A stretch of DNA of 64,000 nucleotides from Escherichia phage PNJ-9: sequence record PQ100635.1. One strand, written 5' to 3'. The notes under the pieces are model-generated. The model ran no database searches. It was given only the letters and a program-made list of their open reading frames with translations, and had not been told where the DNA came from. Positions 6,941 to 64,000 of this stretch are shown here, piece after piece. Made by a program: the position numbers and the translations under genes. The first letter of the stretch is position 1; every line of letters starts with the position of its first letter.

Positions 6941-7492
6941 TTACTTAAAGATATTTATAATCGCTTTGAAAATAGATTTGTTTTCAAGGTCAGGGAATTT
7001 AGGGAATTCACCGCCAAGATGTTCATGCTTTTCTAAAAGGGCAAAGAATTTTTTGAGCTCTTTAAATTTTCGTTTTTCTTCTCTATTAGCAACCTCTGCG
7101 TCAATAAGAGAACTTAAAACACTGAATAATTTATAGAGTTCATGAATTTTCTTGTCACGTTGAACTACGCGTTTATATGCTTCATCTTCCTTCCACCCGT
7201 CGTCGGTCCAAATGTCAAATTCACCAGGTTCTTCTGTAGTAACATTTTGAAGAGCACCTGGGGTGTCAATAACAATTTTTTGCTTATCATAAGTCCATAC
7301 TGTTTTTCCACGATGGTCTTCAATATATACCCATTCTTGTTCGCGTTCATCAAATACAACAGCATAGCCTTCTTTAGGGTCTAAAGGTTTTTTTGGTGTC
7401 GAATGAGCCGGAAATCCTACGCCTTTTAATGGTTTATAATTTTCTTCTTTGTAAAATTCTTTAGTGTCAAAATAATAGTGATAGAGTTTCAT
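6941..7492 (-). CDS. 38: tail fibre assembly/receptor-recognition protein gp38 (T4-type)
   Basis: 183 aa; MK.YHYYFDTKEFYKEENYKP and C-terminal ALLEKHEHLGGEFP match T4 gp38. Confidence 0.85.
   Translation of the reverse strand: MKLYHYYFDTKEFYKEENYKPLKGVGFPAHSTPKKPLDPKEGYAVVFDEREQEWVYIEDHRGKTVWTYDKQKIVIDTPGALQNVTTEEPGEFDIWTDDGWKEDEAYKRVVQRDKKIHELYKLFSVLSSLIDAEVANREEKRKFKELKKFFALLEKHEHLGGEFPKFPDLENKSIFKAIINIFK
6952..6959 (-). promoter_or_regulatory. late promoter TATAAATA for t
   Basis: Exact TATAAATA on - strand 21 bp upstream of t start, inside 3' end of gene 38. Confidence 0.55.
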
Positions 7493-7525
7493 ATTATAAA
7501 AAGGGACAGAAGTCCCTTCTCCTTA
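7490..7525 (-). promoter_or_regulatory. hairpin-split ribosome binding site of gene 38
   Basis: On - strand: gene 37 stop, GGAGA, hairpin AGGGAC-UUCU-GUCCCU, UUUUUAUAAU, then ATG; hairpin would bring the distant SD close to the start codon. Confidence 0.5.
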
Positions 7526-10500
7526 TGCTAAACGAACGATATAGTTAAAAGCAACGTTTTTAACTGTGTTTTCTGTATTTCCTGTGGCATTTACAGTTAT
7601 TGTATGTCCATGGGAACCGATTGCAACAGTATGAGAATGAGCACCAATACCAACAGTATGGGAGTGGGCACCAATACCCACAGTATGTGCGTGAGCGCCT
7701 GCGCTTGCAGCAGTACCAGATATAGAGTGCGAATGTGCCCCAGAAGAAGAAGTTCCAAGCGTATTACCACCACCGGCGGATCCTCTTATAGAACCAGTAC
7801 CAGGAGCGTTGTTACTTCCCGCATAAAGAGCGCTTGTGTGGCTGTGCGCACCGGCGGTGTTTGTGGAACCGCTCAAACTATGCGTATGAGCACCAGTATT
7901 ATTACTGGTCTTAGTACCATAGTCGAAACTACTTGTCGTCTTAGTACCATAGTCAAAGCTTGATGTGGTCTTAGTACCCAAATCCGTGCTTGATGCACTT
8001 GCACTATGACTATGTGACTTAACACCGTCTGCTTCTGTACTTAATACAGCACGCCCAGATGGTTTACCCTTGATAGTTTGCCCGCGCATATCAGGCAGAG
8101 AGCCGGAAGGATACACCGCAGCTAACTTAGGATACAAGCCAACATCAAATGTTTGACCTTCCATTATGGCATAACCTTCAGGAGGTGTATCAGTAGGCCA
8201 AGGAATCGGAGCACCAATTGGATAACTTGAGACAATATCCGTCTTAAGGTTATTTATTGTGGTATTCAAGTTAGCAAAATTGCCAGAACCACCGGTGATA
8301 TTACCATCAGTACCAATACGAACATTACCAGCGCCTAATTTACCAGGAGAGTAAAAATCACCGTTTTTATTAAATTCCCAACCTAAATCCTTTATAATTG
8401 CGCCAGTAGAAACGCCATCGCCACCTTCGTGATAATGAACTCTAAAGTTACCACCATTAATTAAAGTACCAATAGAATAGCAACTATTATTTTGAACGTA
8501 TCTTTGTTTCACAATAGGAACATAAGTGCTTGTATCTGTTCTATCAATATTCATATAGAAAGGAGCACGAACGTTTTCATTATTCTGGGAAGCAAATGAA
8601 CCCGCTCCGGCTGGGCGAACAGCATCAGTACATTCTGCATCGATGTACGCCGACTGACCTATCTGCATTCTGAAATTAGGAGAAATGCGACTATTACTAG
8701 TAACAACAACAAGTTTGTTATCGTTGTCCACAGTAATCATATTACCACCAGCACCATCATCGCCTAACGTAACAGAATGACGCATTTGCACCATACCATT
8801 ATTAAGGCTAATACTAAGCGGGCGGAGATTACTTATTCCACCACTTTCACCTGCATCTTTAAGTGTAGGTATAATATGCAAAGACGCTTCAGAACGACGG
8901 AAAATAGCTCCATATTCAGCATTGTAAATACGGAAAGCATCTGCGGTATTACCGATTTTAACTTGACCGGTAATAGAACCACCACCGGATAAAACAAGCC
9001 CGTTATCCATAGTAACTTGTCCGGATAATGTACTTAATCCATTAACTCTAAGACTTCCATCGGTGATAATGCTCCCTCTTGCATTCAGTTGTCCATTAAT
9101 TTGTGTTACAACAGGTCCCACAGTTTCTGAACCGGTTGGAGCTACGCGCTGAGAATAAAAATAATATCCTTGTCCGTCAGCTACTTCAAAAACTGTTTCA
9201 CGATTACGATCGCCGGATACGTTAAATGAATTACCCCATGCTTTAACAGTTACATAACTCTTATTCTGACCTGCTCGAGTACCGCCTTCCCACATGATTT
9301 GCTTAGTGCCGTCAATACCTGAAGCTGCTTTAAAAACTAGAGAAGCATTAGTTCCATCACCATTAAAATATAATCCATTATTAAGCTTTAATGTTTGAAC
9401 AGAAGCGACGGTACCATCAGCACGCAAACTTAATGTATTTGAACCAGTGCTAATATCTAAAATTCCTGGTTCAACAAGGAGACCTTGGGACATACCAACA
9501 GCCATACGACCTGTACCACGGAAATAGTGATACATTTTAGAATTACTGTTATAACCGATATGAGTCTGACCGTCACCGTTATTATTACCATCAACATCGG
9601 TACGCGCAGTAAACATTGCTTGGTTGTTATTTGGGTAATCCCAAGTAGAACCAGAATCTCGACTATAACCAACCATCAATTTTTTAGTACTGTTAATACC
9701 ATTATTAAGAATAGTGCCGGCAGAAATACCATTCGCAACCAAATCAATAACACCGTCACGAACCCATTTAACACCAGTGTCATTATCACCAATTGCAATA
9801 CCTTTACCAAATGTGGCCAAAGGATAACGCCCTTGGGAGCCGACATCGGCAAGACCTACACCTATCGAATTAGCAACAGACATACGCCCGTCGGTGGTAT
9901 AAGACCATTGATAAACTTCAGCATTGCGCCCAGTCCAATATGAAATATTCTGTGGTTTACCTGAACGAGCATCAGCAATTTCATGGAAAATAGCAGAAGA
10001 AACATGTCCGCGGAATTTACGAAGGTAGTTTATACCATTAGTATCCAAATCTGTTTCGGTTGGAGTATATTGCCAAGTCGGTAATGAAACTAAATCATAT
10101 GCAGTATCAATATTAGTGTCCCAAGATTTAGTGCTCACATTGATATTTTTGGTAATAACTTTAGGACCAATTAAAGAACCAGCTTTAGTTTCAATATTAC
10201 TTTGAGTAACTAAATATCCATTAGATACTAATAAATTTCCGGAATCAACTTGAAAATTACCATTACGGTTAAAGGTCCAATATTTCGAAGTGCCTGTTTC
10301 ATCGATATAATGCATCTTCATTGAGCCTTCATTTACCAAGGTCCCTAATGAGAAAGTACCGTCTTTATAACGCTGCTTAAACAGCGGATGGTATTCAGAA
10401 GTAGCAGTAGTAGAACTTAAGTCGGTAAAAATAGGAGCTTTATTTAGGTGTTGATTTGCCCACGCACCATTACCGGCTGTTTTAGGTAAAAATTCAATAT

Positions 10501-10759
10501 ATTTTCCTGCATAAACAAACTGATTTCCATTAAGATTATATGTGCCGTTTTGTAAATAATCACCATTTTGGGTTACATTACCGTTAATATCCCCACCCTT
10601 AGCAAAGCCTAGGCTAATAATATTACCGAGGTCATCTTTAGTAAAAAGAGTTCGATCTTTTAAGTTTATCGCTAATTCGCCTTCGGCTAATTGTGCTGCA
10701 GTAGGATTAACTCCTGCCACTTTGCTTCTTTTAAATTGTATCTGTTTTAATGTAGCCAT
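7523..10759 (-). CDS. 37: long tail fibre distal subunit gp37 (receptor-binding tip with HxH repeats)
   Basis: 1078 aa; N-terminus [13 protein letters not shown] and C-terminal His-rich tip ([30 protein letters not shown]) match T4 gp37. Confidence 0.9.
7617..7697. repeat. 3 x 27-bp tandem coding repeat in gp37 tip (HxH units)
   Basis: Units 7617-7643, 7644-7670, 7671-7697 share ccaata...cagtatg...gtg.gc.; encode repeated VGIGAHSHT-type motifs. Confidence 0.7.
7908..7997. repeat. 3 x 30-bp tandem coding repeat in gp37 tip
   Basis: Units 7908-7937, 7938-7967, 7968-7997 each start gtcttagtacc; encode [10 protein letters not shown] repeated. Confidence 0.7.
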
Positions 10760-60675: not shown

Positions 60676-61488
60676 TTAGAAACGAGATGCGACTTTCGCA
60701 TATAAACTTACATTAGAATTCTGTTCTACCTGAGTTGTGGTAGTGTCAACTGCTTCGGCAACAAAATTAAGACCGGCAGCGTCATTGTCAACTGTATTTA
60801 TACTTTCGGTAATAGCGGCTTCTTCTTTAGTAGAACCTTTAACCATTTCTACAATAGCAGTTAACTTAGTACCAAATGCGTCAGAATAATCCATACCTTC
60901 AACCAGGCCAATAACTTTTTCTTTCTGAGATTCAGTCAGGTCTTTTACGCTTTCATTAATAGCGGTTTCACGCTGAACGTAATTGATATATGCATCACGT
61001 TTGGTAACTTCTTCGAACAAACGAGCGGTTTCTTCTTTATGTTCGGCCAGCTCTTCTTCCATTTCTGCTACAACATCTACAGATTCTTCTGGAACAACAA
61101 CGTTATGTTCAACAAACAGTTCTTTCAGACCACCAAGCATGGATTCGAACAAATCAGCTTTAATGCCTTTATCAACTGCGATTTGGTTTTCTGCGAGCCA
61201 TTCTTTTGCAAGATGGTCTAGGAATTTAGAAGCTTGTTCAGCCAATTTTTTATCAGCTTTCTCTTCAGCATCTTCTTTAGCCTTTTCAACTTCTTCTTCG
61301 GCCTTTTCGGCGATGGCTTTGATATGAGATTCAGCCAGTTTGACTGCTTCCTGCTTAACGGTGGCTTCGAATACAGTGCTGAAATTAGCTTTAACGTCCG
61401 GAGACAGTTCTACTGATTCGAAAACACTATTAAGAGCAACTGAAGTCTCGATGTTTTGAGCTTCTTTCAAAAGTTGTTCTTTGATCAT
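60676..61488 (-). CDS. 22: prohead core scaffold protein gp22
   Basis: 270 aa; Glu/Lys-rich helical scaffold, C-terminal YAKVASRF matches T4 gp22. Confidence 0.85.
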   Translation of the reverse strand: MIKEQLLKEAQNIETSVALNSVFESVELSPDVKANFSTVFEATVKQEAVKLAESHIKAIAEKAEEEVEKAKEDAEEKADKKLAEQASKFLDHLAKEWLAENQIAVDKGIKADLFESMLGGLKELFVEHNVVVPEESVDVVAEMEEELAEHKEETARLFEEVTKRDAYINYVQRETAINESVKDLTESQKEKVIGLVEGMDYSDAFGTKLTAIVEMVKGSTKEEAAITESINTVDNDAAGLNFVAEAVDTTTTQVEQNSNVSLYAKVASRF

Positions 61489-61526: not shown

Positions 61527-62163
61527 ATGCTTTTAAACTCTCTGCGAGAGCTTTAAATGCTTCATCAGCACTGTTTTTGGTGGTTTCCACCGAATTTTCT
61601 GATTCTGATATTTGTTTAGGAGTAACCCAAGCATCTGGAGCAGAAGGTCCCCATACGGCATCTACGCCGACGGTTAATTTAAATCCTTCGTTCACGATAC
61701 GGTACCCTTTATTGGTGTCGGTTAAAGAACCAAGACCACGAGAGGAAACACCTGGAATCCAACCAGCTCGTATATTAGCAGCTAATTTATCGCCGGGACC
61801 ATGGTCGCCTTCAATAATTCTAGCACGTCCATATACATCGTTTCCTTTCCACCACATATCTTCAATAATGATAGCGGCTTGCATAGGGTCAACATTTGCA
61901 CGAGGTGGATGGTTTAATTCTCCAAGGGCTTGTTTGGTTGCGACTTGTTCTTTAATATAGTCACTTACTGCTTTTTCCAAAACGCGTTTAGGATATAAAC
62001 GTTTATTTCGGTTAACAACCTCTGCCTGAAGAAAAATACCTTCTATATAAAGCCCTGGTTTTAAGCCAGAATCTTTTCCATCATGAGATTCCAACATTGG
62101 AACGCCATCAATAATCTCACCGGGTTGACCCCAAGTTTCAATAAGTAACTCGGGTTTATTCAT
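61522..62163 (-). CDS. 21: prohead core protease gp21
   Basis: 213 aa; near-identical to T4 gp21 as recalled (LNHPPRANVDPMQAAIIIEDMWWKGNDVYGRAR.IEGDHGPGDKLAANIRAGWIPGVSSRGLGS). Confidence 0.9.
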   Translation of the reverse strand: MNKPELLIETWGQPGEIIDGVPMLESHDGKDSGLKPGLYIEGIFLQAEVVNRNKRLYPKRVLEKAVSDYIKEQVATKQALGELNHPPRANVDPMQAAIIIEDMWWKGNDVYGRARIIEGDHGPGDKLAANIRAGWIPGVSSRGLGSLTDTNKGYRIVNEGFKLTVGVDAVWGPSAPDAWVTPKQISESENSVETTKNSADEAFKALAESLKAL

Positions 62164-62588
62164 TAGCTTAATCCTAATGCTTTACGACGTTTAAGAGCCT
62201 TTTTACGCTTACGCAAGCCTTTAACTTGGCCTGAAGGGTTAGCTTTTTTAGCTTTAACGACCTTACGAGCGATTTGTCTACGTTTTGCTTTAGAAAGACC
62301 AGTTGTTTGGAACGCGTTACGTTCACGAGTTTTACGGTCTTTAGTGCGGGTGACTTCACCACGAGAAGAAACATGTTTAACGATAAACTCATTTAACTGT
62401 TCTTCATTAATAATGGAAGCCATTGCAACAGCTAAATCTGTTTCAGTTTCAAGCATGTTCTCGATAATAGTATTTATATCGTCAATATCGAGAGCAGAAG
62501 ACAATGCATCGATTCGGCCCTGTGCTTCAGGAATAAGTGCTTCGACATTTTCGAGTACCAATTCATAAGATTCAGGGATAAGATACAT
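62163..62588 (-). CDS. 68: prohead core protein gp68
   Basis: 141 aa, same length as T4 gp68; basic C-terminus; overlaps gene 21 start. Confidence 0.75.
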
Positions 62589-62817
62589 TATTCATCGTCC
62601 TCATCATCTTCGTCTTCGTCGTCATCGCCTTCATCAGCGTCGTCTTCCGAAGCTTTCTTTTCTTCTTCAGGTTCTTCGCCTTCAATCAAAAATTGAGAAG
62701 CGATTTCTGCTTTGCGTGCTTCAATCAAACGAACCGTTTTTTCTGCCATTGCACTTTCAAAAAACTTTCGAGTAGCAACGAGGTCGTTTGATTTAATAGC
62801 TTGAATTAAATCGTCCA

Positions 62818-62818
<1 letters not shown>
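62588..62818 (-). CDS. 67: prohead core protein gp67 (acidic C-terminal tail)
   Basis: 76 aa; poly-acidic C-terminus ([18 protein letters not shown]); position between 20 and 68. Confidence 0.7.

Positions 62819-64000
<1,182 letters not shown>

Follow-up and report, generated by a model that had tools for sequence, protein, structure and literature searches.

Tandem repeats in the gp37 tip of Escherichia phage PNJ-9 as probable building blocks of the long tail fibre needle

The receptor-binding tip of gp37, the distal subunit of the long tail fibre, contains two tandem arrays in Escherichia phage PNJ-9, each of which is one unit longer than in T4. This raises the question of whether the arrays are expansions at a slippage-prone locus, as a sequence-only reading of this DNA had proposed, or regular components of the fibre structure. 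We addressed it within a stretch of 64,000 nucleotides of the phage genome (sequence record PQ100635.1; hereafter, the window) and by comparison with T4 and a wider family of fibre tips.

Gene 37 and its tandem arrays

Gene 37 was located by its open reading frame and homology at 7523-10759 on the minus strand, on which all gp37 features described below lie, and encodes 1078 amino acids plus a stop. Its product, which carries the Pfam domains Collar and Phage_fiber, is 54% identical to T4 gp37 (BLASTP, full length) and 92% identical to HX01 gp37. The tip matched the T4 structure PDB 2XGF by phmmer with an E-value of 5.8e-96 (query 46-305 to chain 2-242, including the knob, stem, and C-terminus), and the gene is followed by gene 38, a T4-type tail fibre assembly chaperone gene (6941-7492, minus strand; 183 amino acids, 68% identical to T4 gp38, Caudo_TAP), and then by the holin gene t, confirming the identity of the locus as a T4-type receptor-binding tip. 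A distal fibre of the T2/T6 type, with a gp38 adhesin of about 260 amino acids and a gp37 C-terminus without an HxH needle, was rejected because the downstream gene is of the 183-amino acid chaperone type and gp37 has a complete HxH needle. An open reading frame on the plus strand, antisense to the tip (7604-7963, 119 amino acids), was also set aside as a coding reading, because the minus-strand frame has strong homology and synonymous-only divergence. There were no Rfam matches and no tRNAs in the 64-kb window, and the repeats are thus not explained by an RNA element. The exact gp37 protein was absent from a collection of 15 billion sequences in an exact-sequence look-up.

The tip begins with the knob, or collar, domain, the N-terminal part of which (8018-8230, amino acids 844-914) is equivalent by alignment to residues 811-881 of T4 D10, with the domain limits taken from PMC6957217; the Collar match (PF07484, E=8.8e-11) at amino acids 849-896 precedes the needle. 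Eight HxH motifs follow, at amino acids 916, 958, 972, 1009, 1023, 1032, 1041, and 1050, with spacings of 42, 14, 37, 14, 9, 9, and 9. Motif 1 (8006-8014, H916-S-H918), which aligns with T4 H883/H885, opens the ascending limb, and motifs 2 and 3 (7838-7888, amino acids 958-974) enclose a 14-amino acid phage fibre repeat module, for which PF03335 matches at amino acids 953-966 and the spacing equals that from H915 to H929 in T4. The presumed receptor-binding head, or tip subdomain (7736-7837, amino acids 975-1008), lies between motifs 3 and 4, a segment corresponding to the T4 tip region 932-959 (PMC9603124); it is of the GiZh type, unlike that of T4, and clusters with the heads of GiZh and ECCR664 in a cluster of 11 unique tips. 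The descending limb starts with motifs 4 and 5 and their 14-amino acid module (7685-7735, amino acids 1009-1025), and the protein ends with a 25-residue return into the knob (7526-7600), which is near-invariant across homologues and equivalent to T4 1010-1026 plus linker (alignment; PMC6957217).

Two tandem arrays in the codon register of gene 37 occupy the two limbs. The 30-bp array (7889-7978) encodes 30 residues of the ascending, histidine-free limb in three 10-amino acid units, namely one full copy at 7949-7978, a second full copy at 7919-7948, and a diverged copy at 7889-7918. A still more diverged stretch at 7979-8008 is probably the first ascending unit, as its SSTDLGTK resembles the SSFDYGTK of the next units. 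The 27-bp array (7601-7708) encodes 36 residues of the descending limb with HxH motifs 5-8, in the 9-amino acid units ASAGAHAHT (7682-7708), VGIGAHSHT (7655-7681 and 7628-7654), and VAIGSHGHT (7601-7627). Tandem Repeats Finder gave a score of 100 for both, with a period of 27 at 7624-7687 (2.4 copies, 89% matches) and a period of 30 at 7908-7978 (2.4 copies, 85%). These were the top-scoring arrays in the 64-kb window, where just two further arrays reached 60, and the highest score obtained in 100 dinucleotide-preserving shuffles of the window was 63. Thus, the earlier description of tandem, in-frame arrays at the 3' end of gene 37 was borne out; the coordinates given in it (7617-7697 and 7908-7997) designate the same arrays but are shifted in phase from the units delimited here.

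The two full ascending copies differ at 6 of 30 nucleotides, including a TCA/AGT serine switch, and the two VGIGAHSHT copies at 4 of 27; all of these differences are synonymous. The array copies are 80-85% identical, and the longest exact in-register runs between them are 17 nt in the 30-bp array and 11 nt in the 27-bp array. Because the divergence is synonymous only, the duplications appear to be old and maintained by purifying selection rather than produced by fresh slippage, and the conservation of the peptide through synonymous change indicates selection on the protein.

Length classes in T4 and in the wider tip family

The comparison with T4 was made in three ways, by phmmer against 2XGF, BLASTP against gp37 of NC_000866, and DNA alignment. 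In each of them, the tip differed from that of T4 by exactly two indels, of 10 amino acids (30 nt) and 9 amino acids (27 nt), and gp37 of PNJ-9 has eight HxH motifs versus seven in T4, so that the claim of one extra unit per array relative to T4 holds. The HxH numbering used here reproduces the published T4 residues H929/H931, G921, F970, and G964. By DNA similarity, the ascending unit absent from T4 was placed at 7919-7948, although the position of a gap within a repeat is inherently ambiguous; the single full ascending unit of T4 matches copy 1 of the window at 29 of 30 nucleotides, whereas copy 2 has other Ser and Phe codons.

We surveyed 196 unique complete tips from T-even gp37 and lambdoid prophage Stf proteins, a sample that is phylogenetically non-independent and biased towards relatives of the query, and described each by the spacing from H1 to H2 and the number of trailing 9-amino acid steps. 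The class of PNJ-9, (42,3), which is the eight-HxH form, comprised 132 of the 196 tips, including lambda Stf, GiZh, and ECCR664, and among 119 full-length T-even relatives, at least 113 had eight HxH motifs. The short form of T4, (32,2), was a minority (55/196), followed by (52,4) with four tips and (41,3) with three. Therefore, the term expansion could not be upheld, since it is T4 that has the less common, short form. T-even phages and lambdoid prophages alike include both the long and the short class; recombination blurs the tree.

The unit counts of the two limbs were matched, as 2/2, 3/3, or 4/4, in 194 of the 196 tips, which also speaks against the earlier view of two separate array events. 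When each head-sequence cluster was counted once, the coupling table was 14/0/1/24 (Fisher p=1e-9). One of the two off-diagonal tips, P0060, carries an H-to-N point change and has no length mismatch, and the other, L020 (42,2), is a natural uncoupled tip; the arrays are thus coupled, but not absolutely so. Recombination would also create some apparent coupling where it transfers the head along with the two arrays. The 14-amino acid modules flanking the head were likewise symmetric, being 1/1 in 181 tips, 0/0 in 13, and 2/2 in one, with one exception. Furthermore, heads at least 70% identical were found on stems of unequal length in which both arrays had changed together, with heads that were near-identical (P0179 versus P0239; L026 versus P0163) or similar (P0015 versus P0073; P0005 versus P0036), which argues that stem length and head type are separable.

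Proposed paired layers of the needle stem and the alternatives

Both arrays are likely structural components from which the stem of the needle (D11) is built, as opposed to a hypervariable locus with a local expansion. The T4 needle contains seven iron ions along its length that are coordinated by the HxH motifs (PMC6957217, PMC11705849), in agreement with the sequence-only reading, and it has a hairpin topology (PMC9603124, PMC6957217, PMC11705849). In T4 gp37, every chain passes from the knob out to the tip, turns, and comes back, so that the stem is a six-stranded bundle; along its axis, it is stapled by the iron ions, to each of which all three chains contribute HxH motifs. The reported contact between G921 and F970 of T4 puts HxH-4 between HxH-2 and HxH-3, with the limbs interdigitating. 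In PNJ-9, the ascending limb from HxH-1 to HxH-2 is built of histidine-free 10-amino acid units and the opposite, descending limb of 9-amino acid units of the VGIGAHxHT type with one HxH each, such that one ascending and one descending unit from each of three chains may make up one layer of the stem with one metal site. PNJ-9 would have four such layers versus three in T4, and its stem is accordingly predicted to exceed that of T4 by one layer and to hold an eighth metal site, a prediction that rests, as do the layer geometry and the unit register, on sequence spacing combined with published topology. The units would be retained only as pairs, because both limbs must stay equally long, and purifying selection acting on the peptide has probably preserved the duplications since an ancient origin. 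The iron-bound, interwoven homotrimer with octahedral HxH histidines is a trait of the T4 family and is predicted for PNJ-9. An AlphaFold2 monomer model of the 260-amino acid tip from a 40-sequence alignment (pLDDT, 51.5; pTM, 0.21) was too poor to use. We found no open-access paper that states a pairing rule, the primary structure paper being outside our reach, and a literature search for 'GXHXH' or 'GiZh' returned nothing.

Sliding identity and the positions of differences delimited a cassette at 7689-8212 that has one difference from GiZh in 524 nt and lies within an HX01-like gene. The segment 7694-8010 has one difference from GiZh and 163 from HX01, whereas the downstream segment 7523-7693 has 25 and 8, and the upstream segment 8251-9900 has 501 and 91, respectively. 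The 3' junction (7680-7689) falls at HxH-5 and the first VGIG unit, inside the 27-bp array, and the 5' junction falls within a conserved segment of the collar (8171-8213). The gp37 tip is thus a recombinant in which a Mosigvirus-like backbone (HX01) carries a Tequatrovirus tip (GiZh). Receptor choice would be made by the head, which separates HxH-3 from HxH-4 and is here a GiZh-type cassette gained by recombination, and the conserved repeats flanking the head could double as homology for cassette exchange.

These junctions bear on the possibility that the repeats matter mainly as DNA, that is, as short homology blocks promoting the exchange of head cassettes, with their number being a by-product of crossovers. 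In 1998, Tetart et al. reportedly put forward cassette exchange of this kind to explain T-even adhesins. In addition to the junction positions and the joining of two genera in one gene, the sharing of one tip family between T-even phages and lambdoid prophages is in its favour. Unequal crossovers, however, would often uncouple the counts, and a length mismatch was found in just 1 of 196 tips; the peptide is also conserved despite synonymous change, as would be expected from selection on the protein. As a sufficient account, this is unlikely, and as a contribution to head exchange it complements the paired-layer explanation and is not an alternative to it.

That the expansions are recent and driven by slippage independently in each array, so that the locus is hypervariable and receptor specificity is altered, appears quite improbable. 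The extra unit of each array relative to T4, the variation of the copy number among 2, 3, and 4 in the family, and a passage of Tetart et al. are in line with it. So is the comparison of L020 with L086, in which a 597-nt tip is 100% identical except for a 27-nt deletion of one clean unit, at a site where adjacent units share 23 nt; these two belong to a different head lineage from PNJ-9, and the deletion may be genuine or may have arisen during assembly of the sequence. On the other hand, the divergence between copies in PNJ-9, which is exclusively synonymous, the brevity of their exact runs, the majority status of an eight-HxH form common to lambda, the coupling of the arrays, and the occurrence of similar or near-identical heads on stems of different length are all against it. 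We found no copy-number differences among the closest relatives of PNJ-9, ECCR664, GiZh, and HX01, all of which match it in their counts. The 'recent' and 'independent' parts of this explanation are already largely refuted, and the proposed proneness of PNJ-9 to slippage was not sustained. The differences between the copies also speak against a contingency-type slippage locus, which needs identical or near-identical DNA units and would show copy-number polymorphism among otherwise near-identical genomes.

Adaptive tuning of the number of layers to how deep a host surface layer (LPS O-antigen or capsule) the tip has to traverse on the way to its receptor is highly improbable as an explanation. 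There are discrete classes of 3, 4, and 5 layers with 0, 1, or 2 14-amino acid modules, and truncated T4-like tips are reported from other phages (PMC11990801), but both classes are found in E. coli phages and prophages, and one layer adds little to a fibre in which each chain has about 1000 residues.

As an extension of the paired-layer explanation, it is conceivable, though rather doubtful, that the needle of gp37 and Stf acts as a modular ruler of quantised length, with modules that are changed only as matched pairs. The pairs would consist of a 10-amino acid ascending and a 9-amino acid HxH descending module and also of 14-amino acid HxH modules, one on each limb; single-limb changes, such as that in L020, would be short-lived intermediates, and selection would fit the layer number to the depth of the host surface. 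If this were the case, inserting or deleting such pairs would offer a predictable way of engineering the length of the needle.

Significance and relation to known systems

Taken together, PNJ-9 shows the normal build of a receptor-binding tip that has been studied well, in the more common of its length classes. This is of little importance for the window itself. The two arrays are best regarded as a single structural unit whose parts are coupled. For the engineering of gp37 and Stf tips, this suggests a rule that both limbs be altered together and crossovers be placed in the conserved repeats. Gene 37 of PNJ-9 also illustrates clearly how head cassettes are exchanged in nature, here with one junction in a His-box array, and the receptor specificity of the phage may be better predicted from GiZh-type phages than from its nearest relatives in the genome as a whole.

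Among the nearest systems are gp37 of GiZh (KT184311) and ECCR664 (OL631257), which share the head type and repeat counts with PNJ-9, the latter with 97% identity across the final 918 nt. PNJ-9 differs from GiZh in its shaft and last 170 nt, which are HX01-like, and has a private 4-nt patch in its first VGIG unit. T4 gp37 (2XGF; D10 knob, D11 needle) has in common with PNJ-9 the collar, the HxH order, the 14-amino acid modules, the C-terminus, and the T4-type gp38 chaperone encoded downstream, whereas PNJ-9 has one additional 10-amino acid ascending unit and one additional 9-amino acid HxH descending unit, a head between HxH-3 and HxH-4 that is unrelated in detail, and a shaft with about 50% identity. 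The C-terminus of lambda Stf (orf-314, NC_001416) has an identical stem architecture of class (42,3) with eight HxH motifs, running 30 residues outward and 32 back, but differs in having another, longer head (45 amino acids between motifs) and another N-terminal fibre, and lambda is a siphovirus, whereas the PNJ-9 fibre belongs to a myovirus. The Pfam family PF03335, 'Phage tail fibre repeat', models the 14-amino acid HxH-containing module alone, and the 10- and 9-amino acid units of PNJ-9 are not separate curated Pfam families. Finally, laboratory duplications in T4 gene 37, described by Tetart et al. in 1996, reportedly extend host range. They reportedly resemble the PNJ-9 arrays in involving the same protein region and a length change by duplication of a small segment; they were, however, reportedly mutations that arose anew under selection on a different host, whereas the repeats of PNJ-9 are old, fixed, and common to many phages, and their place is the stem, not a demonstrably receptor-binding head.

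The two arrays and their genomic setting

Gene 37, assigned by ORF and homology to 7523-10759 on the minus strand, encodes the distal subunit of a T4-type long tail fibre in 1078 codons, and the last 260 residues of its product matched PDB 2XGF, the structure of the T4 receptor-binding tip, at an E value of 5.8e-96, in support of the location that the sequence-only reading had given for the arrays. Tandem Repeats Finder placed a 27-bp array at 7624-7687 and a 30-bp array at 7908-7978, each with a score of 100, as the two top tandem repeats in the whole 64 kb, and the maximum score among 100 dinucleotide-preserving shuffles of the window was 63. The observation of two arrays is correct and far beyond chance. 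In codon register on the minus strand, the 30-bp array occupies 7889-7978 (30 aa), preceded by a more diverged 10-aa copy, and the 27-bp array occupies 7601-7708 (36 aa), confirming the arrays as tandem and in frame, with the unit phase shifted and the strand, previously unstated, supplied. The alignment of the T4 and window tips contained exactly two gaps, of 10 aa and 9 aa (30 nt and 27 nt at the DNA level), and the window tip carries eight HxH motifs compared with seven in T4, so that the sequence-only reading of one unit more than T4 in each array was correct. The HxH motifs are putative metal sites by homology to T4.

Full-length identity of window gp37 to T4 gp37 was 54%, and HX01 gp37 was closer at 92%; the nearest cluster representatives were P0121 (a protein cluster) and HX01 gp37, at 92-93% identity, and the exact 1078-aa sequence was absent from a collection of 15 billion proteins. 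Downstream of gene 37 lie a 183-aa T4-type gp38 chaperone (68% identity to T4 gp38, Pfam Caudo_TAP) and holin t, which is the T4 order. Over 20 kb, the closest records were Mosigvirus HX01 and PNJ-6 at 96.6% identity, and none was identical to the window. An ORF of 119 aa runs antisense to the tip (7604-7963, plus strand); it is probably not a gene but a side effect of the repeats and codon bias on the opposite strand. Only two other tandem repeats scored at least 60, at 61264-61308 and 62592-62647 (periods 21 and 15/21); the former is within an acidic, Glu/Lys-rich 270-aa ORF (60676-61488, minus strand) adjoining a 522-aa ORF that looks like a major capsid protein, and the latter lies between ORFs 62163-62588 and 62818-63993. 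The 64-kb window of this T-even-like genome contained no tRNA genes by ARAGORN and no Rfam families at the gathering threshold.

Frequency and coupling of the stem units

The stem, formed by the paired limbs of the needle, was described by the HxH-1-to-HxH-2 spacing (the histidine-free outward limb) and by how many 9-residue steps link the last HxH motifs (the returning limb). Tips were taken from 120 protein clusters matching the tip, 120 full-length gp37 clusters and 80 IMG/VR loci, with the addition of T4, lambda, GiZh, ECCR664 and HX01. Among the resulting 196 unique complete tips, a sample skewed towards relatives of the query and phylogenetically non-independent, the window's form (42,3) was found in 132/196 and T4's form (32,2) in 55/196, followed by (52,4) in 4/196, (41,3) in 3/196, and (42,2) and (32,0) in 1/196 each. 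The form (42,3) was also present in at least 113 of 119 full-length T-even relatives, with (32,2) in only 4, and was shared by GiZh, ECCR664, HX01 and lambda Stf (orf-314), the last with eight HxH motifs. Because (42,3) is the majority class, the "extra" units are the usual state and T4 is a short variant. The five-layer class (52,4) was seen in a few prophage tips (clusters P0013 and P0073, loci L056 and L081).

The two counts were off the diagonal in only two of 196 tips, the (42,2) locus L020 and the (32,0) cluster P0060, the latter deviating by a mere H-to-N point change. When head sequences were clustered at 70% identity (37 clusters) and each cluster was scored once per class, the counts were 14 for (32,2), 24 for (42/41,3), one for (42,2) and zero for (32,3) (Fisher p=1e-9). 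Furthermore, four head clusters hold both stem classes, and both arrays shift together in every one; near-identical heads occur on differing stems in P0179/P0239 and L026/P0163. The 14-aa HxH module (Pfam Phage_fiber) was symmetric about the head, as 1/1 in 181 tips, 0/0 in 13 and 2/2 in one, with one exception; P0026 and L024 are examples of this symmetry from the homologue set.

Such coupling is what the published hairpin topology predicts, in which the T4 chain runs out from the knob to the tip, turns and comes back, with both termini in the knob (PMC9603124). The needle domain D11 comprises T4 residues 882-1009 (PMC6957217) and binds seven iron ions through the HxH histidines of the three chains (PMC6957217, PMC11705849). 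Our numbering of the HxH motifs in T4 (residues 883, 915, 929, 966, 980, 989 and 998) agrees with the published H929/H931, G921, G964 and F970. On the needle axis, the reported G921-F970 contact sets HxH-4 between HxH-2 and HxH-3. The T4 outward limb would then lie with its 32 histidine-free residues next to three returning motifs 9 residues apart, with each HxH layer faced by one 10-aa unit, and an extra layer would need one added unit in both limbs, which matches the window's difference from T4. The window stem is thus predicted to be longer than that of T4, with a putative eighth metal site. A monomer model of the tip had a pLDDT of 51.5, too low for use. We did not find the paired-module rule, a minor structural point about the needle stem, in the literature searched.

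Age of the repeats and slippage

The two full 10-aa copies in the 30-bp array differ at 6/30 nt and the two VGIGAHSHT copies at 4/27 nt, all synonymously and including a TCA/AGT serine switch, and the longest in-register exact runs between copies are 17 nt and 11 nt, respectively. Synonymous-only divergence points to old duplications and to purifying selection on the peptide. The single full decapeptide unit of T4 shares 29/30 nt with window copy 1, and the unit counts are the same in all of the window's nearest relatives. The sequence-only interpretation was right in part (the gp37 tip, the metal-site motifs and the one unit more than T4), but its emphasis on expansion was not upheld, since the window form is common, ancient and structurally coupled, not the product of recent or independent gains. 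Slippage or unequal exchange may still occur somewhere in the family: L020 (IMG/VR 3300030021_000020), the sole length-mismatched stem among the 196 tips, is identical over its 597-nt tip to the contig encoding P0234 and to L086 501-3758 (100%) except for one 27-nt unit lost cleanly, and adjacent 27-nt units in L086 have 23 consecutive nt in common. This loss may be genuine slippage or may come from misassembly.

Mosaic origin of gene 37

With gap columns included, the window differed from HX01 and GiZh at 91 and 501 positions, respectively, in 8251-9900, at 163 and 1 in 7694-8010, and at 8 and 25 in 7523-7693. The GiZh-identical tract covers 7689-8212 on the minus strand and departs from GiZh at a single one of its 524 nt. 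The tract has its 5' junction at 8171-8213 in the conserved collar segment and its 3' junction at 7680-7689, in HxH-5/the first VGIG unit, inside the 27-bp array. As judged from these segments, gene 37 is a recombinant carrying a Tequatrovirus GiZh tract in a gene that otherwise resembles that of HX01 (Mosigvirus). The tract limits thus assign the outward array and the head to a GiZh-like origin and the returning array to the HX01-like backbone, with the stem match preserved because GiZh and HX01 are both (42,3). The 3' arrangement is common to ECCR664. Private to the window are four clustered substitutions at 7661-7667, within the first VGIGAHxHT unit, which reads GCCCACTCCCAT in the window versus GCTCATACGCAT in HX01 and ECCR664 (AHTHT to AHSHT); gene conversion over a short stretch by some other allele may account for them.

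As for the suggestion that unit number may alter receptor specificity, nothing observed points to the stem units as its determinant, and the GiZh-type head is a better candidate. The mosaic agrees with the adhesin-swapping idea of Tetart et al. 1998, in which conserved motifs reportedly mediate the exchange, and the window tip represents a known kind of architecture in a new allelic form.
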